A stretch of DNA of 64,000 bases from an uncultured Poribacteria bacterium (GCA_951813565.1 OX638351.1:3904001-3968000); one strand, 5' to 3'; positions 1 to 62,517 are shown, counted from the stretch's first letter. A program made the numbers and translations. Notes: generated by a model from the sequence alone, not told the origin.

Positions 1-448
1 ATGAAAATAGTAACTTACACAAACACTTTCGTGTTAAATACACTGGACACATGATGTGGGTAACCATTGTTGTATAAGTTCAACTGTAATAATTTTGCTC
101 AGTAATTCACCTCAAATAATTTCCTCTGTTGTGGCAGAGAATTTTGTGGCTCTCAACTCTTGTGTGAACACAGAATTTAAGCAAATATAAAATCTCAACC
201 TTCAATAGCGAATTTTCGGGCGGTTAACATCCTACCCAATTCGGAGTAATTATACAAAAAGTGCCAATTCTGATCAAGTGTTTTTTATGTAAAGTTTTTC
301 AAAGTCTAAACCAACTTATTGTAGGACGAAATCAACTCTAAATGTGCGTATGGCATTCAACGATTCCCTATGCCTGCCCTACGTAGAAAACTCTACCGAT
401 CCTTGACAACTTGAACCTGTGAAACAAAATATCTACTTACCCTCAGAA

Positions 449-879
449 CAGGGTTATTTAGTTTTCGCTTTTTCTGGCGTATTTCATCACAACGTTAATG
501 TTTTATAGCAGCATTGTGGTCGGGTTTCGCTATCACCCTATCCATAGCCTCAACTTAGAAAAAAGATGTGCGATGCAAAGTAGTAGGCACACGCCGGGGA
601 ATGCCATAAGGCATTCATACCCGGTGAATGACTAAAGACGAATGCACTTGGTAGAATACGCTTTTGGTATTCTACATGATTCGCCATGATTCATACCGTT
701 GATTTCTTGATTTGGCGCATGCTGCGTTGATTTGGCTGAATCATGCGGAATACCAAAAGCGTATTCCGCCAAAAGGCATTCATAGCGTTGATTTATGGGT
801 TTCGCAAGCTCTACCCGACGGACGATATAAACTCACAGTAAAACTCAGTAACTGATAATTCTTAAAACTAAATAACCCT
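449..879. mobile_element. ISAs1-type MITE containing REP remnants and stacked micro-elements
   Basis: Ends CAGGGTTATTTAGTTTT (449) and AAAACTAAATAACCCT (864-879); 10-bp direct repeat ACCCTCAGAA at 439-448 and 880-889; ends match the ISAs1 TIR at 8511/9772. Confidence 0.8.
596..795. repeat. Nested stack of 28-35 nt hairpin micro-elements
   Basis: Repeated GAATGCC-loop-GCATTCATA(C/G)CGTTGATT, GCATGCTGCGTTGATT and GAATAC-GCTTTTG-GTATTC-CATG units, the same families as at 27374-27510 and 28821. Confidence 0.8.
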
Positions 880-994
880 ACCCTCAGAAAACAACTTCTT
901 GAAATTAACGGCAATATCTGATATAATGATAATATCAACTTCCCAATGGTATAGAAAAGCAATCATCAGGATAGGTAACACAGGAGACAACATC

Positions 995-3211
995 ATGAAT
1001 CGTTTTGAAAGAAAACAACGTTCACTGAATGCCTGCTTGATTGCTGGGATCGTTCATCTCTGCCTGGCTATCTTTTTAACATTTTTCTATTACACACGAG
1101 TTGCTAATGACTTTGAAGATGTTGTCGGTGTGGAATTTGTAGATATGAATGACCCCACCAAACAGAAACGCCGACTAAAACGTCCCCCACCCAAGCAGAT
1201 GCTTACGCCAAAACAGACGAAATCGTTAACCGCGGGACGCCCGAAACATGTAGCCTTAACCGCATCTTCTAATTTAATCGATGAAACCGTTCGCCCCTCC
1301 GAGAAGATTCTTATGCATAATGCTACAGAAACTATTTCTGAAACAGCGAAACAACTTCCTGATGTAACAACAGACACCCGAGAGATAAATAGTCGCACAG
1401 CATCAATCGCTAAATCTGTTACAAGCCCCTTCGAAATTACCTCTGGCGCGGGCAAAGAAAGCCTACGACAACGGGTTAAAGGTGATGGTGAAAGCGGATT
1501 TCACAGACTGGAGACAACCGGTGCTGCCGAAATTGGGCCTATTGGTGAGGGAATTGGGTTGGGTGGAGACGGTGGAAGTGGAAAAGGAATGGGCACCATG
1601 GACGCTTCTAACCCATTTGCTAAAGCACTCAAGCAAATTGCTGACCATATTATTGCTACTCGGACACTTGATAAAGTTAATGTAGTCTTTGTGCTTGATA
1701 CAAGTGCAAGCATGGGCGATAACATCCAACAGGTTGCCGAAAACCTATTTAGTATGACAGATGCATTCGATCTCGTCAATCTGGAATATCATTTGGGAAT
1801 GTCTGAATTCAGTGTTCGGGAAGGTGGACAAGAGCTTGAAACCCGATCTCTTGCCCCTGATGTGGGTTACCTCCGGCGTCGTATGCAAAAAGTAAAGCTG
1901 AGTGGAGATGAAAATGCGCTTGACGCGCTTATAGACACGTTGAATTTTATGGATTTTCACGCCGATGCAGACAAACACTTAATCTTGGTTACAGATGAAC
2001 CAGCAACAACAAGTATGAGAGAAGAAGGCGCATCCGAAACGGTGCAAGCGAAAGTGATTGATCAGTCTCAAATAGAGGATATTCACGTTAACGTTCTCGG
2101 ATTTCCCGAACCTTTTCAGCAGGAATTAGCTACTACTACAGGTGGCGTATGGCAGCAAATTCCGGGTAGCGTCTATAACCCTGCTGCTCTCCCAACTAAT
2201 CGCGCTGGAAACCAAAAATTTCTCAAAGTTTTCCGAGATATTGCTACTGATATTCGGAAGGGCGGTGCCAAAAAGTATTTTAGCCTTGATTTGAAGTTTG
2301 ATATGCCTGTTGAAGATGGGGAGATTCCTTTAGATAAATTACAACAAACATTCAAGGAAAACAGGGTTGGGTTGAAAAATTACACCTTTCGCTCTGAAAA
2401 TGCAACGGTTTTAGATAACAATCATAACGGTTTGTGGGTAATTACTGACAGAAAGAACAAGCAAATTTATGGCATATACAGAATTGAAAATAGATTAGAC
2501 GTTTATGCGGGTATCTACCCAAAAAACTGGAACTTGGGTGAGAATCTTATTGCGCGGACCCAGCAACACGGCAAAAGGTGGGTGCTAACGCATTCTCGGA
2601 ATAACCAAATATACACATTCCTGAAAGATAAAAACCGCCTTAACGTTTACACTGGAGGACAACCAGGGACGGCTTCCAATAATGCTGCAGAACCAATTGT
2701 AGACATTATGGTGATGTTAGACTATAGTAGGAGTATGGGCGGAAAGTCGCAAGCGGTCATGCTTGGCTTAAGCACGCTCATTGGTCGATTATCAATTTTA
2801 CCGATTAAATATCGGATTGGACTCATCCGTTTTGCTGAAGCAAAAGATGCTATTAAAGCTGTTGATGGTATCGTCGTGTCTCAGATGCCGCTTAATGAAG
2901 TTTTGATAGACAGTCTTATGGAAGCCCCATTTGGTGGTGATGAACATCTTATTGACGCTATTGTTGATGGAGTGCCTCAGGTAAAATTTAGCCCTTATGC
3001 AAGTCGATTCCTACTTATTTTAACTGATGAACCTACTACAGGAAAATATCCTGCAGAGCAAGCATTGGAGCTATGTCAATCGTTAGGTATTACTGCCTAT
3101 GTCATCGGTCATCCGAATCCTAATGATTTTCAAACGACTCTTGCTACACAAACCGGAGGAATCTTTTTTATAATGCCTAAGTTTTTAGAGAAGGCATATC
3201 CAAACCAATAA
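995..3211 (+). CDS. Membrane-anchored protein with two VWA (vWF type A) domains
   Basis: AGGAG RBS before ATG 995; N-terminal TM helix; two MIDAS motifs [10 protein letters not shown] and [10 protein letters not shown], each followed by LILV/LTDEP. Confidence 0.85.
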
Positions 3212-3233
3212 CTTGACGAAAAGAGGTTATTTT

Positions 3234-14790: not shown

Positions 14791-16227
14791 ATGTCACAAT
14801 CTCCTAATATTTTATTTTTACTCACCGATCAGCAACGTTTTGATTCATTAGGCTGCAACGGTGCCACTGTTTGTCAAACACCTGTGGTAGACCATATCGC
14901 TGCAACCGGGATGCGTTTCACAAAAGCGTATACACCAATAGCACTCTGTTCCCCCGCACGCGGGTCTTTACTCACTGGACTCTATCCCCATAATCATGGG
15001 CAACTCTCAAACATGGGTAATTTCAACGCGGTATTTTCAGATCAGATTCTCGACAAACCTGCATATCCACAATTACTTAAAGCTGCTGGATACAACGTGG
15101 CGTGTGTCGGAAAATGGCATCTGGCAAAACAAGGCGATACTGAGTTTTGGGGATACGACAAGTGGCATCCGTATAGTGAATGGCATCAGTGGCTTCGTGA
15201 TGATGGGATTGATTTTAGGATTGACCGAGACGCTGTGCAACCTTATGAATGGGGTGGAGAGGCACCTTTCTACGGCAGACTTCCGCTTCCTGTTGAGCGA
15301 ACGATGGAGGCATGGACAGCAGATAAAACCATTGAATTAATCAACGGCTATACTAATTCTGAGCAACCTTTTATGATTGCCGCTAATTTCTTCGGACCGC
15401 ATTTCCCGTATGCTGTTCCTGCACCTTACGATATGATGTACGACCCAGATTCTGTTGAACGATGGGGCAATTTTGACGAACAGTTCATCAACAAACCACT
15501 TATCCAACAGAAAGAGATGCTCCGATGGAACGCGAGTCATTTGACTTGGCCCGACTGGCAGAAAGTCATCGCAGCGTATTGGGGTTTTTGCACCTTCATT
15601 GATGACCAAGTTCTACGGATTTTCAATTGTCTTGAAGAAAAAGGTTTAGCAGAAAACACTATCGTCATCTTTTCAACTGACCACGGTGACATGCTCGGTA
15701 GCCATCGACTTTTCAACAAAGGATTTCACATGTATGAAGAGACACATCACATTCCACTTGTGGTCCGATGGCCAGGGGTGACATCACCAGGAACGACTTG
15801 TCATGAATTTGTTAACCTTGTTGACCTTATGCCGACATTTTTGGAAATCGGTGGTGCAGCAATGCCTAATAATCTTGATGGAAGGTCTATCGTACCGCTA
15901 CTCAGAGGCGAAACCGTAACGGATTGGCCGGATGACGTATTCGCTGAATTTCATGGATACGAACCAACACTTGCCACTGTACGGATGGTGCGTACCGATT
16001 CGTGGAAATACGTCTACAATCCATACAGTGAAGATGAACTTTACGATATGCAGAGCGACCCCCATGAACTTCACAATCTCGCAACACATCTCGGATACAA
16101 GCACGTATTGCGCCGCATGAAAGACCGTATGGTCAAACGGCTGCGCGAAACGAAAGATAATATCGTCACGGAAGGTGGGTGGCAGAGCAATTCGTTTGAT
16201 CTGTTAATCTCTGATCGGGAAAGATAG
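14791..16227 (+). CDS. Sulfatase (formylglycine-dependent)
   Basis: PNILFLLTDQQR, CSPARGSLLTG, GKWHL, STDHGDMLG. Confidence 0.95.
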   Translation: MSQSPNILFLLTDQQRFDSLGCNGATVCQTPVVDHIAATGMRFTKAYTPIALCSPARGSLLTGLYPHNHGQLSNMGNFNAVFSDQILDKPAYPQLLKAAGYNVACVGKWHLAKQGDTEFWGYDKWHPYSEWHQWLRDDGIDFRIDRDAVQPYEWGGEAPFYGRLPLPVERTMEAWTADKTIELINGYTNSEQPFMIAANFFGPHFPYAVPAPYDMMYDPDSVERWGNFDEQFINKPLIQQKEMLRWNASHLTWPDWQKVIAAYWGFCTFIDDQVLRIFNCLEEKGLAENTIVIFSTDHGDMLGSHRLFNKGFHMYEETHHIPLVVRWPGVTSPGTTCHEFVNLVDLMPTFLEIGGAAMPNNLDGRSIVPLLRGETVTDWPDDVFAEFHGYEPTLATVRMVRTDSWKYVYNPYSEDELYDMQSDPHELHNLATHLGYKHVLRRMKDRMVKRLRETKDNIVTEGGWQSNSFDLLISDRER

Positions 16228-16233
16228 CTATGT

Positions 16234-16655
16234 TACAGTGAAATCTAAAATTAACGACTTGTGCTAGTTAACTGTTTATTTTTGTTGTTTTCACACATAT
16301 TGGGTTTTTTTCTATAAACATATCGTCCCTACCAAATCAACGCCAAATGCGCTTATGGCATTTGGCGGGACTGAAGAGCATATCAACCAGTAGGAAACAC
16401 GGACAAAACGTTCTGCTTATGTGAAATAGTATGTTGCAAAAAGTTATTTAGCACAACTCGTAAAATTACTTGGACAATTCTTTATAGGTTTGCTGCGTTT
16501 GTAGTCGCGCAATTCATTGCGCCTCTTCCTGTAGGAGCGACCCGCCAAATGCCAAAAGCGCATTTGGCGTTGATTCGCAGGTCGCGACTTTAAAACTGTA
16601 GAACACTTTGTCCGTGCCGAGTGACAATGTCCAGTTAATTCTAAAATCCACTATA
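16234..16655. mobile_element. Composite MITE (outer TATAGTGG-type TIRs) with inner MITE, REPs and two 34-nt micro-elements
   Basis: Outer ends TACAGTGAAATCTAAAATTA..CTTGGACA and TGTCCAGTTAATTCTAAAATCCACTATA; inner element 16254-16461 with ACGACTTGTGCTA/TAGCACAACTCGT ends and AAAATTA duplication. Confidence 0.7.
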
Positions 16656-16692
16656 AATGCCTCACAAAATAAGCGGTTGATTCCTTATTTGA

Positions 16693-17466
16693 ATGAAGCA
16701 GGAGTTCAAATCAATGCCACAACAAGATGCAATAGAACATCTTGAAACATTTGGCTATTGCCTAATTGAGGATGCGATCCCTATAGAAAAAGCAGATGCA
16801 ATGGCGGAGAAATACTTCAAACTTCACCAAAATCCAGCGAATTGTGAAACTTTTCAAGACCCCAACGCTGATTTGTATGAAACCCTTTTCGGAGTGGTCA
16901 ATCTTGATGAGATGTGTTGGGAATGCATCGCACATCCGCAAGTGCTGCAAGTCGTCCGCCATTTTCTCGGCGATAGCGCGCGGTTGGGGGAGGCATGCAC
17001 AAAGTGGGTCAAACCACGTGCACCACAAGGTGGTATACACTCCGATTCTACACACGACTTGCCATCGCGCTTGCCCGAAACACCGTGGATGATTAATTCA
17101 ATCTGGATGATAACAGATTTCACAGTTGAGAATGGAGCGACGCTTGTCGTGCCGTTTAGCCATCGCGCCCGGCGTAGACCAACGCAATCCGATATTACAG
17201 AAAGTCATCCGGTGTCCGTCTGTGGAAAACGGGGTTCGGTACTATTGTGGCACGGTGGAACATGGCACGGACAGGGCGCGAACACAACCGACAACCAACA
17301 TCGCATGGCGTTGAACATCGCTTATTATCCTGCTTGGTGGAATCTAATGCGGGAAGGTGGACACCAACCTGTTTTTCCAGAAACTTTTGCGCGAATGCCA
17401 GAAGACCTACAAGCACTTGTCCGACATAAGGTTGCGAAACGGCGTGAGGATATTTATGAGTTTTAA
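16693..17466 (+). CDS. Phytanoyl-CoA dioxygenase (PhyH) family protein
   Basis: HxD (IHSD), NSIWMITDFTVENGATLVVPFSH, TWHG, R..L motifs. Confidence 0.92.
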   Translation: MKQEFKSMPQQDAIEHLETFGYCLIEDAIPIEKADAMAEKYFKLHQNPANCETFQDPNADLYETLFGVVNLDEMCWECIAHPQVLQVVRHFLGDSARLGEACTKWVKPRAPQGGIHSDSTHDLPSRLPETPWMINSIWMITDFTVENGATLVVPFSHRARRRPTQSDITESHPVSVCGKRGSVLLWHGGTWHGQGANTTDNQHRMALNIAYYPAWWNLMREGGHQPVFPETFARMPEDLQALVRHKVAKRREDIYEF

Positions 17467-17484
17467 TCTGACCAAGTACTCCCG

Positions 17485-17949
17485 TTATTGTTGTGCCGCA
17501 GTCCTGAGAACTGCCTTAGTAGTGTCCGAGATGTTAAGCGTTCTGAACACTGCATCGAACAACCCAACCAAATAATATGCCTGATGTTCGGTAGGACTGA
17601 GTTTGATTTCGCTTTCCTCTACCTCAACAAGAAAGTTGAAATGCCTTGATCTTTCGCCGGAACTGGATGTATGATCAAAAGAACCGAGATATTTCAGGAC
17701 AGATTTCACAATAAGTCCTGTTTCTTCTTGGACTTCTCGAGCGAGTGCTGTAAGTAGGTCTTCCCCCGCCTCCACGGTACCGCTTGGTATTTCAACAGAT
17801 CCACCCATGAAGTCAGATAGAACTCGTTCCAGGAGCAAGAATTTGTTATTCTTATAGATTACCGCACCCACAACCAGTTTTTGCACGCCATCTTTTTGAG
17901 AACTTGCGAGCAACTGCTGAATAATAGCGTGTTCAATGTTTGACTGCAT
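17485..17949 (-). CDS. NUDIX hydrolase
   Basis: Nudix box GTVEAGEDLLTALAREVQEETGL. Confidence 0.92.
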   Translation of the reverse strand: MQSNIEHAIIQQLLASSQKDGVQKLVVGAVIYKNNKFLLLERVLSDFMGGSVEIPSGTVEAGEDLLTALAREVQEETGLIVKSVLKYLGSFDHTSSSGERSRHFNFLVEVEESEIKLSPTEHQAYYLVGLFDAVFRTLNISDTTKAVLRTAAQQ

Positions 17950-17958
17950 ATTATGGTT

Positions 17959-18798
17959 CTATACCTTCACCACAAACTCACATCCCTGCTGGAACCACTC
18001 CCTGAGTATCGTATCCTCATTGTAAGTCCGTTTCGCCTGTGAACCTGTTGCTTGTGAGAGGTCAATTGTAGCAGAAACGATTTCATCACCGAAAAATCCT
18101 GCTTCTTTGATAACATTCCCGTTCGGATGAATTATTTTGGAGTTGCCATGTGACGACCCTGCTGCTCTTATATCATTTGGATTTGCTGGTGTGTTAGCCA
18201 TCACGAGATAAATCCCATTTTCTGTTGCACGCGAAATCGGCATAGCACGATACGCAGAGAGTTTATATTCCGACAACAATCCCGATTCACACGAGCAGAA
18301 AATACAGATTTGCGCGCCCATTGCCGCAGGTAATTTTACTAATTCTGGGTAACGAACATCATGACAAATGATGAAACAACAATCAACATCTGCCAACTGG
18401 ACAATCGGTAGTTTACCACGATTATTTGTACACCACTTCTCTCCAGCAAGGAATGTTTTCCCGTACCGGTATTTAAGGCTGCCTTGTTGATCGAATATCG
18501 CTAAGTCGTTGTGCCAATTCTCGCCATCGTGATGCACAGAACCGACAATGACTGCTATCTTGTAGCGGCGCGCAGCCTCTGCAATCTTCGCCTCTGCTTC
18601 TTTAAATACTTGTGGCGATATCTGTTTCCAATAAGCAGTATCACAGCAATAACCGAATAAACACCCTTCAGGAAATGCCGCAATCTGTATCTCCAGTTCT
18701 GCACACACTTCTATTTGTTGGAGCACTTTTGCGGTGCTGGCAGAGACATCTTTACTTGTAAGCAACTGACATGCTGCAATTTTAATATTATTCGCCAT
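17959..18798 (-). CDS. Carbon-nitrogen hydrolase (nitrilase superfamily)
   Basis: FPE, YGK, ICHDVRYPE triad; RATEN; GNSKIIHPNG. Confidence 0.92.
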   Translation of the reverse strand: MANNIKIAACQLLTSKDVSASTAKVLQQIEVCAELEIQIAAFPEGCLFGYCCDTAYWKQISPQVFKEAEAKIAEAARRYKIAVIVGSVHHDGENWHNDLAIFDQQGSLKYRYGKTFLAGEKWCTNNRGKLPIVQLADVDCCFIICHDVRYPELVKLPAAMGAQICIFCSCESGLLSEYKLSAYRAMPISRATENGIYLVMANTPANPNDIRAAGSSHGNSKIIHPNGNVIKEAGFFGDEIVSATIDLSQATGSQAKRTYNEDTILREWFQQGCEFVVKV

Positions 18799-18854
18799 TT
18801 AACTACTTCTCCTATGTTGTTTCAGTTGCTTACAATGTCCTGTGTTAATTACTC

Positions 18855-19187
18855 CTACTCTACAGCGTACCCCGTGTATTGTCGAATATCTGGCGAACGG
18901 AACCCTAAGACAATATGTTCTTTCGGAATACCAAATCGCTCTAATTCAGGTGCTATACCTTCAGTATTATCTTGTTGTATCCACAACTTTCCATCTATTA
19001 TATCAATCCGGACAACACAAGCATGAATCCGTTTGTGTTTCTGATACCCTCTTGTGATCCACAGATAGCGATCAGAATCTTTGTCAACGATAATTTCGTC
19101 GGTTAAATCACTGTGAGCGGGAGGCACCTCTGTATATTCACGAAAGACTTGCAATATAATCTCTCGATATTTTTTTATTCGTTCCAT
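18855..19187 (-). CDS. xisI: XisI family protein
   Basis: DRYL...RIHACVVRIDIIDGKLWIQQDNTEGIAPELERFGIPKEHIVLGF. Confidence 0.92.
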   Translation of the reverse strand: MERIKKYREIILQVFREYTEVPPAHSDLTDEIIVDKDSDRYLWITRGYQKHKRIHACVVRIDIIDGKLWIQQDNTEGIAPELERFGIPKEHIVLGFRSPDIRQYTGYAVE

Positions 19188-19592
19188 TTGATAATTTCCT
19201 CCTCAGTTTTACTGAAGACAACCAATTTCAGATGATTTTTGCGGATTAGCATTTGTCCCAGAGAATCCTCAAAAACGGTTGCAAATACTTCTTCATGGAC
19301 AGCAAGATATAATGTCCGATCTGGTTCAAGTTCTTCAATAATATTTCAATAGAGGATATATTGACCTAAAGCATTTTCAAGGTCTGCAAGATTGGAGTGG
19401 CTTGTAAAACTTTTGACTTCAACTGCGATTTTTCTATTTTCTTTTTCTGCTGTCAAAAGTTGTTCTGCACCCAGATCCACATATAGGTGATCAGTACCCC
19501 ATTTCAAACGTAGAGGGTCATGTGTTATTATCCAACCGTCCTTAAACAAGGGCATTCTTCACATTGTCGTGATAAATGTCTTTAGCTGGCAT
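19175..19592 (-). pseudogene. xisH: XisH family protein with frameshift and internal stop
   Basis: MPAKDIYHDNVKN, then +1 shift to KDGWIITHDPL...IAVEVKSF...ALGQYILY, TGA, then ...EPDRTLYLAV...IIKW; overlaps xisI. Confidence 0.9.
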
Positions 19593-19937
19593 GCGTTGTT
19601 TTTCTCCGACAGACCTAACGTTCCCAAATCCCTCGTAGAATGATAGTAAGTGGATTCCTTTAATATTCAATAATCTATTTTATCACGGTTTACCCAATCT
19701 GTCTACAATATATTTCGAGACAGTTTGAAAATACTAAATAACTATTGCAATTCAGGATTTAGGTAACGTATAATATATAGTATATCAAAATAGGTTGCGC
19801 TTGACACCTACTTCTGATATACTATACAGCAAGTGCATTCTTTTATCCAAACATGATTCAAGAACACTACCTTGCAGAGCATATAAGGGAAATTGATAAT
19901 CCCAAATTACTATTACGAAATTACGAGGAAAAATCGA

Positions 19938-20555
19938 TTGGCAGAACAGAAAGCAACTAATATTACGTGGCATGAAACAACTGTCACAAAGCAAGATAGG
20001 GAACAACTACTCAACCAAAAAGGTTGTGTCGTATGGTTTACCGGACTCTCAGGTTCAGGAAAATCAACATTAGCCAATGCAGTGGCACACTTATTACACG
20101 AGCGAAAACATCATACCTATGTCTTAGATGGTGATAATGTCCGACATGGGTTAAACAAAAATTTAGGTTTCTCACCCGAAGACCGCGAGGAAAATATTCG
20201 CCGAGTCGGTGAAGTAGCGAAACTTTTTGTGGATGCGGGTACTATCGTCATGACAGCGTTTATCTCGCCATACCGCGCTGACCGGGACCAAGCAAGAGAC
20301 CTCATAGCTGAAAACAGATTCGTTGAAGTATTTGTTGAATGCCCACTTGACGTATGTGAAGAACGCGACCCGAAAGGTCTATACAAAAAAGCGCGTGCCG
20401 GAGAAATTAAGGAATTTACAGGTATCAGTGCTCCTTATGAAGCACCTCACGAACCAGAGGTTATTGTCAATACAGCGGAACTATCTATTATTGAATCCGC
20501 AGAGAAGGTAGTAGCGTTTCTTGAAAAAACTGCTTTTGTCCCACCTGAAAAATAA
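19938..20555 (+). CDS. cysC: Adenylyl-sulfate kinase
   Basis: [50 protein letters not shown] start after GAGG. Confidence 0.96.
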
Positions 20556-20650
20556 TACTGCGTAAATCTTATGAAGTTCATTTGATGTAATGATGCGTAA
20601 ATTTTTCAACATAATGTGTCGTGGTAAACAGCAGGAAATTTTGGAGAATT

Positions 20651-21604
20651 ATGAAACTAATCCAATTTCACTTACCTAATTTAGGTAAGCGAGTCGGGAT
20701 TGTCACCCGTGAACACGAAGTTATTGATGTAACCAGTGATGAATCACCAGGTGTTTTAGAAATTCTTGAGCTTGCCCATAAAGAACGGGTGACGCTGGGC
20801 GTTCTTTTGGCGGATATCCAAGAACAAGTTTCGGCACCACCACCGATGCGATTCACAGCATTCCAAGACCCTGAGTCAGTTCCACAAGAAGAAAACGGGC
20901 TAACCTTAGAGAAATTGGACGTTTCGCCAGATGAAAAAATACCACATCTATTGGTCCCAATAGACGCACCTGAAGTATGGGGGTGCGGTGTTACCTACAA
21001 GCGAAGCGCGGATATGCGCGATGATGATACGCAACAAGACATCTACAGTCGTGTTTATCATGCAGATAGACCTGAAATATTTTTTAAAGCGACACCATCA
21101 CGTTGTGTCGGATCGAACGATTTTATCGGGATTCGTAGCGACTCTATTTTAACCGCAACCGAACCTGAACTCGCTTATGTTCTGGGGGCAGAGGGTGAAA
21201 TCCTCGGATATACGCTTTGTAACGATGTTTCTGCTTGGGATATTGAGCGCGATAACCCGTTGTATCTGCCACAATCAAAGGTATTTTATGGATGCTGCGC
21301 GCTCGGACCTATGTTTATTACGACTTCTGAAGTTGATGATCCGTATAATCTGGAGATGAAATGCACTATCCTTCGTGATGAAAAAGAAATTTATGAGGGA
21401 AAAGTAAATACCTCTCAAATTAATTGGAAGTTTGAACAACTTACTGAATTTTTGATGCGGGATAACCCGATCCCTTTTGGTACTGTCGTTTCTACTGGCA
21501 CAGGGATAATTGTCCCAAACGATTTACCGCTTGCGCCGGACGATATTGTCCAGATAGAAGTTGAAGGTTTCGGAACACTTTCAAATCCTGTGAAACAACT
21601 GTAA
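20651..21604 (+). CDS. Fumarylacetoacetate hydrolase family protein (keto-deoxy-pentonate dehydratase-like)
   Basis: EVWGCGVTY, RPEIFFK, EPEL, NDVSAWDIERDNPLYLPQSK, TGTG. Confidence 0.88.
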   Translation: MKLIQFHLPNLGKRVGIVTREHEVIDVTSDESPGVLEILELAHKERVTLGVLLADIQEQVSAPPPMRFTAFQDPESVPQEENGLTLEKLDVSPDEKIPHLLVPIDAPEVWGCGVTYKRSADMRDDDTQQDIYSRVYHADRPEIFFKATPSRCVGSNDFIGIRSDSILTATEPELAYVLGAEGEILGYTLCNDVSAWDIERDNPLYLPQSKVFYGCCALGPMFITTSEVDDPYNLEMKCTILRDEKEIYEGKVNTSQINWKFEQLTEFLMRDNPIPFGTVVSTGTGIIVPNDLPLAPDDIVQIEVEGFGTLSNPVKQL

Positions 21605-21614
21605 GAGGTGTCGT

Positions 21615-22724
21615 ATGCAAGACACCGAGTCATATATCGGTAGACACAAAACTGAATTAGATACGCCCGCGCTGTTAATTGATCTGGATAAAATGGAAGC
21701 CAATATCCAGAAGATGGCGGATTATTTTACTAATGTCAGCGCGGAACTCAGACCCCATCTCAAAACGCATAAAACGCCGATTATCGCACATAAACAGATT
21801 GAAGCGGGAGCAATAGGCATAACTTGTGCTAAATTGGGTGAAGCGGAGGCAGTAATTCATGCGGGAATTCGAGATGTCCTAATTGCCAATCAGATTGTCG
21901 GTCCACATAAGATAGCACGTCTTATCAACCTTGCAAAGCATTCTGAGATTATGGTTTCTGTGGACAACTCTCACAATGTGCAGGCTATTTCCGAAGCAGC
22001 AACAGCAAAAGGGGTAACTATCAGAATCTTGGTGGAAGTCAACATCGGGATGGATCGGTGTGGTGTTGAACCCGGTCAACCAACACTTGCGTTGACACAT
22101 CAGGTATGCCAAAGTCCAAACCTGAAGTTTGAAGGATTGATGGGATATGAGGGGCATACCGTCGCAAAACCGAACAGAACCGAACGTGAGACTGCGACAC
22201 GAGAAGCCATGCAACGCTTGATTGAAACGAAACATTTTCTTGAAGAGCATAGTGTAGAGGTTTCAATTATGAGCGGCGGTGGCACAGGCACTTTTGACAT
22301 CACAGGGAGTATTCCCGAAATGACGGAGGTGCAGGCTGGTTCTTATGTCTTCATGGATTCGACCTATCACAATGTTGAAGGCATTGGAGGAAAGTTTGAC
22401 AACGCATTGTCAGTTTTGGGCACTGTCGTCAGTTGTCCCGCACAGAATCGCATCATCGTAGACACGGGTTTGAAAGTGCTTACGAAGGAGTTCGGCATTC
22501 CACAACCGATTGTTGTTGCTGGACTCGAAATGACGGGTCTTTCCGAAGAGCATGGGAAAATGCTGGTTTCCAACGGAGATGTTTCCCTTAAACTGGGAGA
22601 TAAACTTGAAATTTTACCTACACACTGTTGTACCACTGTTAATCTGCACGATAGATACTACGGCATCCGTAATGAGATTGTCGAATCTGTCTGGGAAATT
22701 ACCGCAAGAGGAAAATCACAATAA
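21615..22724 (+). CDS. DSD1/D-threonine aldolase family PLP-dependent enzyme
   Basis: [47 protein letters not shown]. Confidence 0.92.
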
Positions 22725-23044
22725 TGATCACAACTACAACGAATACGATTGAAGGCAGACAAGTTGGACAATACCTTGGCTTAGTTACAGGTGAGGCAAT
22801 CATGGGGGCAAATATCTTTCGTGATTTTCTCGCTGGTATTACAGATATGATTGGCGGCCGCTCCGAAGCTTATGAAAGCAAACTTGCTGATGCACGTGAG
22901 ACCGCAATCCGAGAAATGCAAGAAATCGCGCAACGGCAAGGTGCTGATGCTGTCCTCGGTATTGATATTGACTATCAGGTGCTTGGTTCCAGTAACGGTA
23001 TGCTGATGGTGACCGCAACCGGAACTGCTGTTAAGTTAAAATAA
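22724..23044 (+). CDS. YbjQ / UPF0145 family protein
   Basis: TTTNTIEG...GANIFRD...GGRS..YE...GADAV...[11 protein letters not shown]. Confidence 0.93.
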
Positions 23045-23072
23045 ATGAAGGTTGTACATAAAATAACCAATT

Positions 23073-23349
23073 TATAGTGAACTTTGAAATTATTGGGACT
23101 CTTTGCTAAACTTGTCTTGGAAAGATAATGGACAATAGAAGTTGTAGCACAAACTTTTAGTTTGTGCCTTATGAGACGCAAACTAAATGAAGATTAATTT
23201 ATTAATTCGGTAATTTTGGAGAAAGATCCAGTGCGGTTGGGAAACCGCACCTACCGGGTTTGGGAAAAATTAGAATTACCGAAATATTTTCTTAATCTTC
23301 ATAAAGTTTGCGCTACAGAAGTGTCCCATTAATTATAGGTTTTACTATA
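23073..23349. mobile_element. Nested MITE > REP pair > MITE > REP
   Basis: Outer TIRs TATAGTGAACTTTGAAATTATTGGGAC and GTCCCATTAATTATAGGTTTTACTATA; inner element 23188-23301 with TGAAGATTAA/TTAATCTTCA ends and TAAA duplication in a REP loop. Confidence 0.75.
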
Positions 23350-23554
23350 AATGTGTGTTTAAAAGTAGTAGGCACGCGCCGCGTGCCGTAACAACTTCAA
23401 AGAGGACACAAATGCTGAACGCGTATTTAGCGTTGATTTAAACAGTCAACTCGTGCAAAGATAAAAAGTGTTGGGTTTCACGTTGTTCAACTCAACCTAC
23501 AACATTTTCTAAACCCACGCTCAATTAAAAAACAAAATTTATAGGAGGACTGCG

Positions 23555-24733
23555 GTGCAAAATTTAATTTCAACATATAAACTAAATATTAAATGTAAAC
23601 GTCATGACATAATAGGACTGCTTGCTACGATTATTTTTCTGTCCACACAGTTAAGCGCAAATGCTTATATTTCAATACCTTATACCATTCCGCAAATTGT
23701 CAGTGAAAGTACCAACGTTGTTTTTGGAACTATCACAGAGGTTAACACCAAACGACAGACAGCTGATATTAAGGTTGAACAAAACCTCAAAGGTCGCAGC
23801 GAATTTGACGTGATTAGAATTCGCTTTGATATTTTTAAAGGGGAAGCAGACCATAGAAAAGAGATTGCGCGTTTTCTAAAGCAGGGTGAACCGATTGTTG
23901 TTTGTTATGAACAAAAAGAAGGGCGGATCAACAGTATTGCACATACAAGAGGAAAATGGTTTCAACTCATGGTTACAAAGGATAAAGAGAGAGGTTGGGG
24001 TAGGTGGGGGTTCACCCATTTTGAAGTCAAACTCAATCAGTTCAAAGTTTCAAAAAGAGATTCAACACCCGAATTCCAGAAAGAGGTACGCGCTGTCCTT
24101 AATGGAGATATAATCCGCCTCTTTCTTCTGAACAGAAAAAACTATCAAAAGGAAGTTCCTGTTATTTCCAGCATTGATAAGGTGGGAAAACGTTGGATTG
24201 CCTTTGATGAGACAACCGATCGCAACCTGCCAGGGCTTAGTAAAACTGACATATTATGGCTTGGCTACCGCGCAATTGATGATGGCAGATACCTCCTAAA
24301 TAAGAACCAAGAGAAACGGATCAGAGATTTTGTCAAGAACGGCGGCATTGTCATTGTTTCTGGTCAGGATTGTGATACAGATCGTCCAAGCAGAACCGAT
24401 TGGTTACCTGAACCTCTCAAAGGTGTAGAAAGCCCCCGTCGAAATGACTTCCAGCCTACATCCAAAGCAGGTTCCCTTTTTAAAGCACCGCATCAAATCC
24501 GTTCAGGACATCTTTCACTTGACGACTCCTGGAACGGGTGGAACGATAAATATGAAGTGTTAGCCACAACCAATAATGGCAAGGAAATTGTTGTTGCTCA
24601 ATTGAGATATGGGAAAGGCATGTATGTGATCACAAACCTACGCAATGATAGTAAAGAACAGGTTGCTCAAAACCACAAGATGCTTGAGAATCTTGTGCAT
24701 TTTGCTGTAGAATTCTTGGGTAAATCCAAATAG
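23555..24733 (+). CDS. Secreted hypothetical protein with C-terminal GATase-like (class I fold) domain
   Basis: AGGAGG RBS; signal-like segment; IRDFVKNGGIVIV..DWLP..YGKG..MLENLV, shared with 29014-29790. Confidence 0.65.
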   Translation: MQNLISTYKLNIKCKRHDIIGLLATIIFLSTQLSANAYISIPYTIPQIVSESTNVVFGTITEVNTKRQTADIKVEQNLKGRSEFDVIRIRFDIFKGEADHRKEIARFLKQGEPIVVCYEQKEGRINSIAHTRGKWFQLMVTKDKERGWGRWGFTHFEVKLNQFKVSKRDSTPEFQKEVRAVLNGDIIRLFLLNRKNYQKEVPVISSIDKVGKRWIAFDETTDRNLPGLSKTDILWLGYRAIDDGRYLLNKNQEKRIRDFVKNGGIVIVSGQDCDTDRPSRTDWLPEPLKGVESPRRNDFQPTSKAGSLFKAPHQIRSGHLSLDDSWNGWNDKYEVLATTNNGKEIVVAQLRYGKGMYVITNLRNDSKEQVAQNHKMLENLVHFAVEFLGKSK

Positions 24734-24750
24734 TACGGGAGTTATAACGT

Positions 24751-26286
24751 ATGAGAAAAACCACATGGATATTGACCTTAAGTCTCATATCGGTTTTTGT
24801 CTGTTTCACAGCCACAGCACATGCAGTTATTCCGCAGCTTCTCGGACCACTTACTGCCCTGCTTAGCATCATCCCGCAGATACTCGCCTTTGTCGGCGTT
24901 GCTGTTCTAACCGCGCTTGTATTTGCACGCGATACAACAAAGATGTATTTTTACAAGCTGCGAGATTTTCTGACTGTCCGCAGAGTGATTGTCTCTGTAA
25001 TTAGTTTGGTTGTCCTAATTGGGTTAGCGGTATTGACCTATCAATTTGTTGGGAAAGGAATAAAAGAAAATGTTACCACGACAGGTACAGACGATCAGCG
25101 TGCTGGCACAAAAAATGTAAGAACAGGCACGGCATGGACAACGTTCCGAAGCAATGCAAATCGCACAGGGCACGTTGATGACCTACCCGGTCCTACAAAC
25201 GGAACCCCTTCCTGGGTTTTCAAAGCTAAAGGGAGAAAAACGGTTCAATTCCTTTCATCACCAACAATCGTAGGTAACCGTCTTTATATTGGTTCGCTCC
25301 AAGGTGCAGTTTTTTCTGTTAGTGGTGCAACTTATTGTATAGACACGGATACGCAGGAAGTTGTCTGGCGGCACGATTCAGAAATACCTATCGTTTCCTC
25401 ACCTGCTGTTGTTGCAGGTAGGGTTTACATCGGTGAAGGTTTTCATGAAGATAGTGGTTGCCGACTCCGATGTCTTGATGCAAAGACTGGCGATCCTATC
25501 TGGAGTTTCACTACTGCAAGCCATGTGGAGTCTACACCATTCATTACCCAAGGAAGGCTCTATTTTACTGGTGGTGCGGACGGTATTTATTGCCTTGACG
25601 CGCTGGCAGGTGAGCAAATATGGCACTTTCCTGCTGTTCATGCAGACATGTCCCCAATAGTTAAAGATGGTAAGGTTTATTTTGGTACCGGTTACGGTGA
25701 ATATAAAATCTATGCTGTGGATGCTGAAACAGGTGCCGAGATATGGTCAAAACCCATGCCGTATCCGGTCTGGGGCAGCCCAAGTGTGCACGACAACTTA
25801 GTCTTTTTCGGTTTAGGCAGAGGTGATTTTTCTCAAAGTCATCCTATTCCAAAGGGGAAAGTTGTCGCGCTAAACACCGAAACAGGCGATATCGCCTGGG
25901 AATATGAGGCAGCAGACGCGGTCCTTACAGCGATTGTCGTACACGATGATTTTGTAACTTTTGGTTCCCGCGACGGTTTTGTGTACACACTCACAGCAAC
26001 AAGTGGCGAACTCCATTGGGAAACCGATCTTGGTGCAGTCATTGTGTCATCACCTGCTGTAACACAAGAGGCTGTTTATGCTGCAACGGAAGCCGGAGTA
26101 ATCTACTGTCTCGCCATTGATGATGGCAGCATTATATGGGAATATGATACACAGACCGTTGAATATGGGTTGAAACTCCTTTCTTCTCCAGCTATTGCAG
26201 ATGGAAAACTATACATCGGTTCAAGTGACCGGTATATTTTATGCTTAGGTGGAAAAGAGCTTGTTCCAACCGTTGAAGATCGTTAA
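24751..26286 (+). CDS. Membrane-anchored PQQ-like (BamB-like) beta-propeller protein
   Basis: Repeated SSPAV..G.VY.G...LDA.TG...W blades; hydrophobic N-terminal segments. Confidence 0.9.
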   Translation: MRKTTWILTLSLISVFVCFTATAHAVIPQLLGPLTALLSIIPQILAFVGVAVLTALVFARDTTKMYFYKLRDFLTVRRVIVSVISLVVLIGLAVLTYQFVGKGIKENVTTTGTDDQRAGTKNVRTGTAWTTFRSNANRTGHVDDLPGPTNGTPSWVFKAKGRKTVQFLSSPTIVGNRLYIGSLQGAVFSVSGATYCIDTDTQEVVWRHDSEIPIVSSPAVVAGRVYIGEGFHEDSGCRLRCLDAKTGDPIWSFTTASHVESTPFITQGRLYFTGGADGIYCLDALAGEQIWHFPAVHADMSPIVKDGKVYFGTGYGEYKIYAVDAETGAEIWSKPMPYPVWGSPSVHDNLVFFGLGRGDFSQSHPIPKGKVVALNTETGDIAWEYEAADAVLTAIVVHDDFVTFGSRDGFVYTLTATSGELHWETDLGAVIVSSPAVTQEAVYAATEAGVIYCLAIDDGSIIWEYDTQTVEYGLKLLSSPAIADGKLYIGSSDRYILCLGGKELVPTVEDR

Positions 26287-26429
26287 CTTTGGTATAGATT
26301 TTAATAATATCTTATTCTATTTACACGCTAAGAATTAGTAAATTGACTATAATTTATCTTGTAAACCGCGAACTCGCAATCACGTTTACTTACAAATGAT
26401 CAATTTAACTTCTAACAAGGAGAACGAAA

Positions 26430-27284: not shown

Positions 27285-27557
27285 GTGTCAACTTAAGGAT
27301 ACACCTTCTTGTGGGAGGGGTTTGTAACCCCGATTTAATTAGTTTAGGTTCACAAAAGCGGGGTTACAAACCCGACAAATGCCAAAAGCAGAATCAACGC
27401 CGAGCGCGCGTATGGCACTCGTCGCATTTGGCGTTGATTTGGCAGCATGCCATACGGGGAATGCCAACAAGCATTCATACCGTTGATTTGGCGCATGCTG
27501 CGTTGATTCACTCCCACAAGAGACAATCTGGTAATTATGTGCTTAAATTGACGCCTA
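27282..27557. mobile_element. MITE with 24-bp target duplication, carrying an inverted REP pair and a micro-element stack
   Basis: TIRs TAGGTGTCAACTTAAG and CTTAAATTGACGCCTA; direct repeat TGGGGTA(A/G)ACTAAAATCAACCCAA at 27258-27281 and 27558-27581. Confidence 0.85.
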
Positions 27558-28601: not shown

Positions 28602-28632
28602 CAGCTTAACACTTATCAGTAATCTTTAGTTC

Positions 28633-34637: not shown

Positions 34638-34668
34638 CTATAGCATTAATCAGCGCGAAGTAATTCTC

Positions 34669-50399: not shown

Positions 50400-51015
50400 T
50401 TTGTTGGAAAGAGGATGAAAAGGCGGGAATCTTGGGAGACGTCGGTTAGTGAGAATTACCTAATAGGTTCGCCGTTAGCGTTACATCTCGGATGCCTTAT
50501 ACGATCTTCACTACAGACAACCATTATTATGGTACGATTTATCATGGAAAATTCTTCATATAACATAAGTGGTTCACTCGCTAAACATTTATTACATAGA
50601 GAACGGGCGGAATAGATCCAAAAGTCCCTCCCCTCGCTTGCAGGAGGATAAAGGGTGTGAATTTAGGGATTTCAAAACATAGAATACTCAAATTACTTAC
50701 CGAGTAAACCATTTAGAAATGGTATAACAATAACGTGAGTTTGATAAATCCCGTAGGGAATCAACACCGAATGCGCCTACGGCATTCGGTGGGGTAGAAC
50801 GGAAATGGACAATAAAAATAGACCCTAAAGAGAGGTTGTTGACCTATTTGAGGTCGATATTTCCGAAAAAATAAGTGAAATCCAACTCTTTAGGACTCTC
50901 AAGACGGTTGAATTGTTGGGTTTCGCTTCGCTCTACCCAACGGACATCTATATTCATTCTAATTATCAAGCTCACGTTAACAATAGGCATTTTCAGTAAC
51001 TGCCACTTTTTAATT

Positions 51016-51465: not shown

Positions 51466-51467
51466 CT

Positions 51468-59827: not shown

Positions 59828-60108
59828 ATGGACCTCCTTCTCTGCTTAGATAAAATACTATCAGATTTTCGTTCTTTATTCAACCAAGAAAACTTTGTGC
59901 TTTCCCAAGCGTTTATTTTCGGTTTCATCGCAAATGGAGGTAATGGCACACTCACAAGTCTTTATCAATCAAGTTGTTCACAGACAAGATATTGGTCTTT
60001 TACGAAGTTCCTATCGCGTGGCAAATGGGATGCGGATGTGGTCGTAGCACTTATGATAAAACAACTTCAAAACACATTTGCGATCTGGGTTTATGTTTAT
60101 GATAAAAC
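59828..60108 (+). pseudogene. N-terminal fragment of a DDE (IS701/IS4-like) transposase
   Basis: F..FLSRGKWD...VYD.T pattern; truncated where a MITE begins at about 60109. Confidence 0.55.
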
Positions 60109-60431
60109 TAGTGGAGTGTCTACCGAAATTTTGCGGGTAAAGGTCGCGATTCGGAGATCGCTCCTACCGATGGAACGTTTATGGTAGGAGGGAACTCCGA
60201 TTCCCGACTACTTTCAAACCCATCAATTATCACTTGACGAGGCACTAAGTTGCTCGGACAAGATTTCAAGTTAGCAAACACTGCTTTTTACTGAATAAAC
60301 AAGGCTTTTTCGCTGATTCTTATGTTTTTTGTTCTAAAATCCAAATCAACACCAAATGCGCGTTTGGCATTTGGCGGGGTTAGAAACCCCTCCTACAAGA
60401 GCATTTGCGAAATAGGTGACAACTTGGGTTA
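60109..60431. mobile_element. Two abutting MITEs with REP pair and a 34-nt micro-element
   Basis: TAGTGGAGTGTC...GACGAGGCACTA enclosing GATCGCTCCTAC/GTAGGAGGGAAC; 60245-60431 is an inverted copy of 34483-34637. Confidence 0.7.
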
Positions 60432-60581
60432 TATTATAAAAATATACCACATTGCGTCACCAATTGAACCAAACCCCTCTGGTTGCGCATCTCTTTCAAA
60501 GTAGTAGAGCCCACAAGCACAAAAGAAAACCAGGGCCAGTAACATTATAACTGCCACCAAGAACTTCTGGATGATCCCATT

Positions 60582-61355
60582 TTATTTTTCATTTTCTTCA
60601 TCATTTTCTTCTTGCAGTTCTTCTTCCACCCTTGCTTCAGTAAGAACGGAAGCCAACAATCCAGAGGGAATAGCGATAAGTCCAACCCCAACTAAAGCGA
60701 CCAATGCAGTGAAAATTTTACCGCCAGGGGTTACGGGATACACATCACCATAACCAATTGTGGTTAGCGATACAATTGCCCACCACATCGAATCAGGGAT
60801 AGACCCAAATGCCTCAGGTTGTGCATCTTTTTCAAAAAAATAGATACCACATGCAGCTAAATAAACAAACATTGAAGATAGAATAACAAGTGCAAGAAGT
60901 TCCCTTCTGACTTCAGTTAGTGCGTCAATCATCCTATCCATTGCCAAGATAAATCGGGTCGCTTTGAAGATTCTGAAAACACGTAAGAATCTAAGAATAC
61001 GTAGCACACGAAACCCTGGAACTTGCCTTAATCCGGGGATAAGCACGAGAGACGGTAAAATAGCAAGCAGATCAACAATACCAAAGAAACTAAATATAAA
61101 CTCTTTTTTGACTGGTGCGGTGTAGATACGCAGAATGTATTCTGCTGTAAACAGTACGAGAAATGCCCAATCTATAATGTGAAAATGCGTTTCATACTTA
61201 TCAAAAACTTCTTCGGTTTCCAGCACGAAAGCGATAGCTGAGGCAAGAATCAGAAATTGGATGATTCCGCTAAATACAGCCCCTTCAATGATTTCCCCTA
61301 ACTTTTTTTGTAGGTCAGATTGTCCTCCGTTAACATCATTCAACATGAGTAACAT
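60582..61355 (-). CDS. Voltage-gated potassium channel-like ion transporter
   Basis: S4 RVLRILRFLRVFRIFK; pore WWAIVSLTTIGYGD. Confidence 0.93.
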   Translation of the reverse strand: MLLMLNDVNGGQSDLQKKLGEIIEGAVFSGIIQFLILASAIAFVLETEEVFDKYETHFHIIDWAFLVLFTAEYILRIYTAPVKKEFIFSFFGIVDLLAILPSLVLIPGLRQVPGFRVLRILRFLRVFRIFKATRFILAMDRMIDALTEVRRELLALVILSSMFVYLAACGIYFFEKDAQPEAFGSIPDSMWWAIVSLTTIGYGDVYPVTPGGKIFTALVALVGVGLIAIPSGLLASVLTEARVEEELQEENDEENEK

Positions 61356-61446
61356 CCTATTTTACGCCTTCTTGGCGAGATAGCAATCCTCAGTTAGGAA
61401 TTGAGGATACCAGTTTGCGGCACCTCATATTTTCCATACCAGAAGG

Positions 61447-62364
61447 TTACCACCTCTTTCGCGTTCTAAGATATATCCGTAGGATAATTGCCGCAGCGTT
61501 TACAAGCAGAACACTACCGACCAACACAATTGCAGTACCATAAGGAATACCTTCTGTTACGTCCGGCACCTGTGTTGAAATCGTATAGAGGTGTAATGAA
61601 AGTGCCATACACTGGTCTGTTATATTATATGCAAAAGGATTCCTTTCCGCAATAGCTTTGTAGAATACTGCCCCGGTAAACATAATCGGTGCTGTTTCGC
61701 CTGCTGCACGAGATACCTGCAAAATAACGCCTGTTAAAATCCCACTGATTGAATTGGGTAGCACAATTCGTCGGATCGTTTGCCAGCGCGTGGCACCGAG
61801 ATTCCAACACGCCTCACGGAAAGACATCGGCACCGCTTTAAGTGCTTCAGTCGTACTTGCGATAATAACGGGGAGCGTCATGATTGCCAATGTAAGTGAA
61901 GCTGCCAAAATTGACTCACCTAAACCAGCAAATAAAACAAACGCCCCAACACCAAATAACGCATGGACGATACTTGGAACGCCTGCAAGGTTTACGACTG
62001 CTAAGTTCACAATTCGTGTGAACCAATTATCACGTGCATATTCGTTAAGATACACTGCTGCGAATACGCCGATCGGTGCTGCGACTAATAGCGAAACCAC
62101 TACCAGATAAATTGTTCCAAGAAACGGTGCCCACAGACCGCCAGCCCGCATGTTATCCTTTGGATTCGTGAACAGAAAATCAAGAGACAGCACCGGCAGT
62201 GCTTTATAGAAAAGGTATCCGATAATTAGGAGCAACGGTAGAATCATCAGGCAGGTCATTATAAAAAAGAATACTTTGAAGCCATTTTCTATAAATCTAC
62301 TCTGTCTTCCAATATCTGTTTCAGTAAACATTGTCTCTGGGGTTATGTCTGTATTGGTATTCAT
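61447..62364 (-). CDS. pstA: Phosphate ABC transporter permease PstA
   Basis: AAVYLNEY, NLAGVPSIV, EALKAVP, SRAAGETAP. Confidence 0.95.
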   Translation of the reverse strand: MNTNTDITPETMFTETDIGRQSRFIENGFKVFFFIMTCLMILPLLLIIGYLFYKALPVLSLDFLFTNPKDNMRAGGLWAPFLGTIYLVVVSLLVAAPIGVFAAVYLNEYARDNWFTRIVNLAVVNLAGVPSIVHALFGVGAFVLFAGLGESILAASLTLAIMTLPVIIASTTEALKAVPMSFREACWNLGATRWQTIRRIVLPNSISGILTGVILQVSRAAGETAPIMFTGAVFYKAIAERNPFAYNITDQCMALSLHLYTISTQVPDVTEGIPYGTAIVLVGSVLLVNAAAIILRIYLRTRKRW

Positions 62365-62517
62365 ATAATCCTTAATGAACGTGAGTTTGACGAAAGTTGT
62401 AGTGAATCAACGTCAATCGCTCTCATGGCACTTGGCGTGTTGAACAAAGCGAGTAATGACCCACTATTTTGTTATCTGTGATGCATTTGAAATGTTGGGT
62501 TTCGCTGCGCTTTCCCA

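Follow-up and report, generated by a model that had tools for sequence, protein, structure and literature searches.

Hairpin units of 33–34 nt with a GTTGATT tail: a probably mobile repeat family of sponge-symbiont Poribacteria

Small repeats that lie inside other small repeats raise the question of whether the inner unit has moved there by itself. The question is posed by a stretch of 64,000 nucleotides (nt) from an uncultured Poribacteria bacterium (GCA_951813565.1, OX638351.1:3904001-3968000), here called the window, in which an initial annotation made from the sequence alone listed at least nine copies of a 34-nt unit composed of a 9-nt stem, a 7-nt loop, the second 9-nt stem and a GTTGATT tail, and interpreted it as an undescribed minimal mobile element. 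All of these copies were found where they had been listed, including three family copies in the interval 27374-27510 (Table 1). The 16-mer GCATTTGGCGTTGATT with up to 3 mismatches has 12 matches in the window compared to 1.28 expected, and 12 matches were reached in 0 of 100 shuffled sequences; one of the 12, at position 54550, looks like a chance match. We consider it very probable that the element is mobile, on the evidence of precise excision at paralogous sites and of filled and empty orthologous sites.

The genome of the window (G000) consists of one contig of 5,426,982 bases with 43% G+C and contains 2358 GTTGATT sites, compared to 938 expected from base composition. Upstream of the motif, across a 7-nt loop, nine of nine stem pairs form at 258 sites and eight of nine at 74, for a total of 332 copies, and the remaining sites display the background, with a mode of 3–4 stem pairs. 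A sequence-only profile searched with nhmmer yielded 855 genome matches, 431 of them full length, at ~370 sites. The unit has a 32-nt core (9-bp stem, 7-nt loop CAnAnGC and GTTGATT), to which 1–2 junction bases are added to make 33 or 34 nt. Little or no variation is seen in the upper end of the stem (ATGC/GCAT), in the loop, in the lowest two pairs or in GTTGATT and the C or T after it, whereas the three middle stem pairs vary freely.

Covariation of the stem was measured in 72 distinct copies from other species combined with the 9 window copies, which gave 80 distinct sequences. The search pattern fixed the upper stem, loop and tail, and the four upper pairs are thus uninformative. In the unconstrained lower stem, 91.0% of cells are paired compared to 82.5% in shuffles, and 73 cells carry double-sided changes compared to 23.2 ± 9.1, a count matched by 0 of 500 shuffles; controls in which the pairing was slid gave 4–12 double-sided cells. 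Pair 3-23 is CG in 41, UA in 18, AU in 8 and GC in 2 cases, pair 4-22 is AU in 37 and GC in 32, and one sub-type retains an A-G mismatch at pair 2-24. The excess of double-sided changes bears out the covarying stems of the initial annotation. A sister family of at least 135 genome units (counted by regular expression) is 35 nt long and has the form GGGGAATGCC-AWAA-GGCATTC-ATACC or GGACC-GTTGATT-TG. Its units combine the same GTTGATT-TG tail with a different hairpin and are likewise inserted after C. Because two hairpin families carry the same GTTGATT tail, the tail is suggested to be a part required by the moving machinery.

Mobility at paralogous sites was evaluated by an excision test, in which segments of 28–40 nt, shifted by −4 to +4, were cut out at each of the 332 copies and the joined 12+12-nt flanks were sought elsewhere in the genome. 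Removal of 34 nt restores an existing junction for 91 of the 332 copies at shift 0 and for 94 at shift +1, compared to at most 5 copies for each of the other lengths between 28 and 40 nt. An exact empty paralogue is available for 84 of the 255 solo copies, and most exact empty sites have an offset ambiguity of 1–2 nt, a G or GC being common to the flank and the first bases of the element. The hosts (^ marks the insertion point) include a repetitive extragenic palindrome (REP) with a GTAG tag, gaggc^gcaatgaattgcgcgactac, for which there are 35 empty copies and in which seven element types occupy one and the same position; a REP hairpin ggggttgaaaaccc^ctcccacaagag; a small hairpin cagtccc^gtagggacg; the element itself, which is entered in inverted orientation at the boundary of the 5' arm and the loop; and the end of a preceding copy, which results in direct abutment with a period of 34. 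Full copies form 17 head-to-tail pairs, 3 triplets, one run of 4 and one run of 5. Unrelated hosts carry the same stem types, and divergence in place therefore cannot explain the pattern. The nesting of copies in REPs and within one another had been noted initially, as had the restoration of a host hairpin upon removal; for the copy at 16333-16366, the junction so produced is present empty in the genome.

The targets follow a sharp preference. Grouped by their flanks, the 332 copies represent 118 contexts, of which 83 are unique. Directly 5' of the element, 236 of the 332 copies have C and 83 have G; counted by context, C precedes the element in 95 of 118 and CCC in 62 of 118, compared with a trinucleotide background of 0.83%. 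Many insertions lie at the 3' foot of a REP hairpin ending in CCC, on either strand of the palindrome, and others at junctions of the 5' arm and the loop. The units are inserted whole and in one orientation after C or CCC, mostly into GTAG-type REPs, their own copies and copy ends, and rarely in frame at the start of a gene. Neither flanking duplications nor inverted ends are present around the genome copies, in agreement with the preceding C and the lack of both features first described in the window.

Two sites demonstrate filled and empty states among orthologous positions. The first (G000:C1:1292618-1292651) is filled in G000, G104 and G106, where it reads cagtcc C(core)CGG cctttt..., and empty in the five aligned species G096, G109, G088, G098 and G107, where it reads cagtcc TGA/TGC cctttt..., a net difference of 33 nt. 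At the second (G000:C1:4444598-4444631), 12 aligned genomes, G000 among them, carry the copy, which is decayed in G080, and the aligned G096 and G108 are empty; 9 more genomes are ~31–32 nt shorter as judged by match length. Read in the orientation of the element, the difference is an insertion of 33 nt (core + C) that falls cleanly between T and G. Together with the 91 exact 34-nt excisions, these two clean sites support the claim of a very small mobile repeat.

Both orthologous insertions are in frame (11 codons) and fall among the first ten codons of a gene, which in one case encodes an ABC-transporter permease (BPD_transp_1) and in the other an OGG1-type 8-oxoguanine DNA glycosylase (OGG_N, HhH-GPD). 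Because both lie in frame inside genes, the net +33 may reflect survivorship of in-frame events. The units can accordingly lengthen proteins in frame, by 11 residues. The old copy in the glycosylase gene has diverged along with its flanks and now pairs poorly, which shows that the hairpin is not maintained everywhere. Genes are otherwise avoided: although 83% of the genome is covered by stop-free frames of 150 codons or more, 25 of the 431 full copies lie in them, nearly all of these no more than 26 codons from where the frame begins.

Three further comparisons bear on individual loci. At G000:C1:630779 the relatives are ~29–46 nt shorter, in a spacer too diverged for the junction to be placed. 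At locus 4556586 a REP together with the element is absent from most relatives and a possibly orthologous empty REP occurs in G098, which is suggestive only of a filled and empty pair. Logan contigs from four sequencing runs, aligned to window positions 16001-36000, end at every copy and show no 34-nt skip, a result that speaks neither for nor against filled and empty alleles; nine public runs share half or more of the words sampled from the searched stretch, with no RNA run among those listed. An intergenic spacer in G000:C1:4556250-4556950 measures 5–23 nt in eight relatives and 152 nt in G000 (REP and element), and 102–307 nt in G106, G098 and G104, where it is filled by other repeats. This spacer displays fast colonisation by repeats.

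The element is confined to one family of sponge-symbiont Poribacteria, with essentially none elsewhere. A scan of one genome per prokaryote species returned at least 80 loci, and among the matches listed (80 loci) all were in Candidatus Poribacteria metagenome-assembled genomes (MAGs) except for one further MAG. The exact pattern is present in 76 of 176 Poribacteria genomes, within a single family (g1 36 of 39, g6 38 of 65, g5 1 of 1), compared with 0 of 64 genomes from other Poribacteria families, and the reversed control pattern had 0 matches across all 176. The number of exact-pattern copies per genome ranges from 0 to 187 inside one genus. A covariance model, with at most 46 candidates scored per genome so that presence and not copy number is measured, recognised the element in 95 of 99 genomes of family f1 and 0 of 10 genomes of f2, and gave marginal matches in 7 of 26 genomes of f3, nearly all of them single, with E from 3.5e-4 to 8e-3. 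The exact pattern had 0 matches among 2.9 million viral contigs.

In our judgement the chances are about even that this is a non-autonomous micro-insertion family which moves as a folded single strand by means of a strand-transfer enzyme acting in trans. That the element travels as a folded single strand is itself an evenly balanced proposition. A folded single strand, or else template copying, is most likely because a double-stranded circle of 34 bp is too stiff to form, and cut-and-paste by a DDE enzyme is unlikely because such enzymes need inverted ends and leave duplications. A conserved loop, upper stem and tail beside a freely covarying lower stem are the traces expected of a protein that reads the hairpin; the enzyme would recognise the invariant ATGC/GCAT stem top, the loop and the GTTGATT tail, and would tolerate any paired sequence in the lower stem. 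It is possible, if doubtful, that its chemistry is HUH/Y1-like, in that the enzyme would cut on the 3' side of a short target motif and again a set number of bases 3' of the hairpin. The layout would place the target motif at the left and the hairpin about nine bases from the right cut, as in an IS200/IS605 end or a REP. Several HUH enzymes cut TTGAT-type motifs. The insertion sequences (ISs) IS608 and ISDra2 of the IS200/IS605 family insert 3' of a short motif without duplication, have no inverted ends and carry a hairpin near the cleaved end, and the target of ISDra2 is a TTGAT motif. The element resembles them in its insertion 3' of a short motif (CCC), in the absence of a target duplication and of inverted ends and in a hairpin a few bases from one end, and differs from them, as from gene-less derivatives of this family, in having a single hairpin as opposed to left and right ends.

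Still more tentatively, the 33–34-nt units and their 35-nt sister could be among the smallest autonomous-looking insertion units, with a mover that either belongs outside the recognised transposase classes or is a housekeeping enzyme of single-stranded DNA (ssDNA), conserved in the family, which would read the hairpin and GTTGATT and paste the unit after CCC in ssDNA. If this is true, similar machinery might account for the small dispersed repeats (SDRs) of cyanobacteria.

No gene is attached to the element, as the initial annotation had assumed in placing the mobilising enzyme elsewhere. Among 43 pairs of element sites located 300–2500 bp apart, the open reading frames in between share no recurrent family. 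The genome contains 44 repeat families of at least 700 bp at 216 loci; in the 14 largest of them, a copy lies 60 nt or less from an end in only 2 members, and none ends in the unit. Searches of the genome had 0 matches to the IS110 DEDD transposase (with a positive control), 0 to Phage_GPA and 0 to relaxase families; those for Y2_Tnp and Rep_1 also had 0, but with silent controls that make these two zeros uninformative. There are two reverse-transcriptase genes. Among HUH classes, Y1_Tnp alone was detected, at 10 loci, of which four or five lie in IS200/IS605-type ISs of 1.75 kb and five are single-copy genes flanked by REPs of their own, three of them paralogues related to the REP-associated tyrosine transposases (RAYTs; Table 1) and two others. 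The 1.75-kb IS (TnpA and a second gene; G000:C1:228254-230011) occurs in 4 copies, along with many 1.26-kb copies without the Y1 gene. One RAYT-like paralogue, at 3549623, is shortened by an in-frame TAG. A classic signature of Y1 enzymes is strand bias relative to replication. The full copies of the element are oriented plus in 201 and minus in 230 cases, and no clear replichores are evident in G000, in which the cumulative curves of GC skew, GC3 skew and gene orientation have no two-replichore shape and give no place for an origin or terminus to measure such a bias against.

Two sets of observations weigh against transfer of a folded strand by a dedicated enzyme, the first concerning the enzymes and the second the junctions. 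The resident IS200/IS605-type ISs have unrelated ends, with ccccTgccTTTaggtagggg-type hairpins unlike the element, and the RAYT genes are flanked by GTAG-type REP arrays of their own and not by the element. The RAYT-like clade is patchily distributed, being found in 108 of the 176 Poribacteria genomes (f1 77 of 111, f2 7 of 11, f3 22 of 29), which includes the families f2 and f3 that lack the element, and with the query used here it was unmatched in G110 (131 exact copies), G105, G093, G101 and other holders of the element. The second Y1 clade is likewise present in 10 of 11 genomes of f2 and 20 of 29 of f3, and unmatched in G106 (146 copies), G087, G089, G091, G107 and G108. G093 (one contig, 92% complete) has no PF01797 Y1_Tnp match, yet it contains element copies. 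The two Y1 clades do not track the element across the 176 genomes.

These facts bear equally on the possibility that the element is an atypical class of REP, moved by the genome's own RAYT or IS200-like Y1 gene as a part of the REP/RAYT system, which we regard as unlikely. REPs with GTAG or CGTC tags and RAYT transposases are presented in the accessible part of Di Nocera et al. 2013 (PMC3733652), and the REPIN/RAYT system in excerpts of PMC3116915. As far as these excerpts go, the element shares with such REPs a hairpin of 20–40 nt (here ~34 nt), a conserved unpaired tag, high copy number, intergenic location and a presumed HUH Y1 mover acting on folded ssDNA. REPs, including their GTAG tags, are moreover favoured targets, and an element copy lies within about 150 nt upstream of three of the five single-copy Y1 genes. 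One of the three is intact, in the upstream REP, and two are decayed; as a link to the element these copies are weak evidence, because REPs are its favoured targets. A look beside the HUH/Y1 and RAYT genes, proposed in the initial annotation, yields nearby copies at these three genes. The tag of the element is a 3' GTTGATT and not GTAG or CGTC, the C or CCC on its 5' side being host sequence, and, again as far as the excerpts allow comparison, the inverted pairs that surround a RAYT gene are missing. Unlike a REP, the element inserts into REP tags and loops, and it has no co-distributed cognate RAYT gene.

The second set of observations concerns the ends of the insertions. The constant block is the 32-nt core, and the 91 exact +34 cases consist of the core and two bases, while both orthologous sites are +33, which does not conform to one cut-and-paste rule. 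In three REP families ending in ...GCTCC-TAC, the filled form is GCTCC-C(core)CA-C, again a net +33; the host T has been lost or turned into C, a base never found at that place in empty copies. Ten paralogous copies fit the net +33 rule exactly. The initial annotation described units of exactly 34 nt, which holds for the 91 paralogous cases and not for these ten or the two orthologous sites. The two terminal bases track the base that follows and not the element type: G comes next in 135 of the 141 copies (44 of 49 contexts) that end in TG, C comes next in 69 of the 80 copies (20 of 29 contexts) that end in CA, and the single stem type GCAGCATGC occurs with TG, CA and CG ends. Among the candidate junction rules, in which 32, 33, 34 or 35 nt are taken out or one base is replaced, no single model fits all cases.

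This dependence on the neighbouring host base would suit a templated process joined by microhomology, in which small-RNA reverse transcription or template switching by a polymerase copies the unit and 0–2 nt of microhomology join it to a nicked target. The range of junctions (+34, +33, +32 and +30, with 1–5 host bases lost), the 1–2-nt ambiguity at most exact empty sites and the two reverse-transcriptase genes also fit such copying. It nevertheless appears quite unlikely, as 91 insertions are exact 34-nt units and the 5' truncations typical of reverse transcription are absent, the partial nhmmer matches being mostly halves of interrupted copies.

Most of the copies have multiplied passively inside larger carrier repeats. 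Both 195-bp flanks are unique in the genome for only 15 of the 431 full copies, and the 118 contexts include clusters of 43, 23 and 17 copies carried within larger repeats. In the window, the copies at 50757 and 60342 are passengers of this kind. An element that is altogether immobile, being a module of composite repeats resembling REPs or bacterial interspersed mosaic elements and distributed as these composites move, as copies recombine or convert one another and as the hairpin is precisely deleted, would account for this passive multiplication. It is very unlikely to be the full explanation in view of two orthologous sites at which unique coding DNA carries a clean +33 insertion, the seven types at one host position, the same types in unrelated hosts, the inverted copies nested in copies and the 83 unique contexts. 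Finally, a functional motif selected by the host (a protein-binding site, RNA stabiliser or terminator) is highly improbable, for although a covarying hairpin with a conserved loop and an almost wholly intergenic location might be expected of one, the window has 0 matches to Rfam 15 at gathering score, no U-run lies 3' of the hairpin, interruption of one copy by another is frequent, the old copy in coding DNA decays with its flanks, and exact-pattern counts vary so widely within one genus.

The closest parallel is found in cyanobacteria. The small dispersed repeats SDR1-8 of Nostocaceae, with units of 21–27 nt, were reportedly described by Elhai et al. in 2008. To our knowledge, the movement of DNA units of 20–35 bases has gone unexplained since that description, and we know of no enzyme responsible for it. 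Like those SDRs, the present units are tiny non-coding repeats that insert precisely into small repeats and into each other without target duplication; unlike them, they have a Poribacteria host, a length of 33–34 nt, a sequence of their own, a GTTGATT tail on two hairpin families and a CCC target. Identity with the Nostocaceae SDRs was rejected on taxonomy, the two being set apart by host and description and not by sequence. Among the accessible parts of the literature, PMC4390886 reports SDR5 precisely inserted inside HIP1, and PMC5861425 states that no SDR was found beyond Nostocaceae.

Miniature inverted-repeat transposable elements such as Nezha, Correia and ERIC are tabulated in the accessible portion of PMC3184786. 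To the extent that this table describes them, the present units resemble them in being non-autonomous and intergenic, with stable hairpins and a mobility inferred from filled and empty sites, and differ from them in that a unit of 33–34 nt has neither the IS-like terminal inverted repeats nor the direct repeats of those elements, which measure ~70–400 bp. A CRISPR array was rejected, as head-to-tail units abut with a period of 34 and have no unique spacers between them, and an integron attC site was rejected, as there is no inverse core 5' of the hairpin. The literature searched on repeats of Poribacteria has no description of such an element, in keeping with its having been called undescribed; one paper that combines Poribacteria with hairpins and repeats (PMC12985086) is, in its accessible part, unrelated.

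The family stands beside the SDRs as a second, independent and well-defined case of mobile DNA of 20–35 bases. It offers an invariant tail on two hairpin families, a sharp preference for CCC and hundreds of copies in many long-read genomes. It also offers clean filled and empty orthologous sites, and one family that holds the element next to sister families without it. Taken together, these features make it feasible to search for the enzyme by comparing genomes. In these sponge symbionts, short-read assemblies break in intergenic DNA rich in repeats, a large part of which is also explained by the family.

The copies in the window illustrate several states of the element. Five have an intact 9-7-9 hairpin with GTTGATT (16333, 16544, 27390, 50757 and 60342), and three have a decayed stem and an intact GTTGATT tail (328-361, 23407-23440 and 62403-62436). 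Folded as ssDNA, the copies at 16333, 16544 and 50757 reach −9.3 to −9.7 kcal/mol with z of −2.9 to −4.4, and the decayed copies at 328, 23407 and 62403 have z of about 0 to −1.2. The copy at 23407 had been recognised from the outset as degenerate, while those at 328 and 62403, which are decayed too, had not been flagged. The nest at 27374-27510 combines insertion of an inverted copy with insertion of a sister-family unit. Its first copy (27374-27441) directly follows the REP hairpin ggggttacaaaccc; the host element also exists empty in the genome, and the composite of this copy with its nested inverted copy occurs 12–14 times.

Table 1. Copies of the element and related units in the window, and RAYT-like genes in the genome. 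Positions are those of the window unless a genome coordinate is given; ^ marks an insertion point.
Feature	Position	Strand	ssDNA fold
Decayed copy; GTTGATT tail and loop kept, stem mostly unpaired	328..361	-	−1.3 kcal/mol, z −0.43
3' half (GCATGCTGC GTTGATT TG) of an interrupted copy, within the small-repeat nest at 600-780	717..734	+	
Intact copy, GCCAAATGC/CATAAGC/GCATTTGGC GTTGATT TG, in small hairpin cagtccc^gtagggacg	16333..16366	-	−9.7 kcal/mol, z −3.5
Intact copy in the loop of GTAG-tagged REP gtaggagcgacc^caggtcgcgac	16544..16577	+	−9.7 kcal/mol, z −2.9
Decayed copy, tail intact	23407..23440	+	
Copy GACAAATGC...GCATTTGGC GTTGATT TG, interrupted at the boundary of loop and 3' arm by an inverted copy nested in it	27374..27441	+	
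Nested inverted intact copy, GACGAGTGC/CATACGC/GCGCTCGGC GTTGATT CT	27390..27423	-	
Next head-to-tail copy, GCAGCATGC...GCATGCTGC GTTGATT CA, loop interrupted by a 35-nt sister-family unit	27442..27510	+	
Sister-family unit GGGGAATGCC..GCATTCATACC GTTGATT TG; same tail, different hairpin	27456..27490	+	
Intact copy of ACCGAATGC type, tail CC; passenger of a larger repeat with 23 occurrences	50757..50790	-	−9.3 kcal/mol, z −4.4
Intact copy with one G-T pair, within a ~190-bp repeat with at least 6 near-identical genome copies	60342..60375	-	
Decayed copy beside GTAG tag gttgtagTGAATCAAC	62403..62436	-	
RAYT-like Y1 paralogue, 162 aa	G000:C1:242009-242497		
RAYT-like Y1 paralogue, 144 aa	G000:C1:3549656-3550090		
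RAYT-like Y1 paralogue, 159 aa	G000:C1:5070927-5071406		

Other repeats occur in the same stretch. Window positions 600-780 form another nest of small hairpins, with an inverted unit of GTAGAATAC type and several GTTGATT tails in 180 nt. At window positions 59950-60440, three or more further repeat families (query positions 1-161, 160-298 and 296-487) make up the intergenic DNA as a mosaic, and each of them is repeated many times in this genome and in related genomes.

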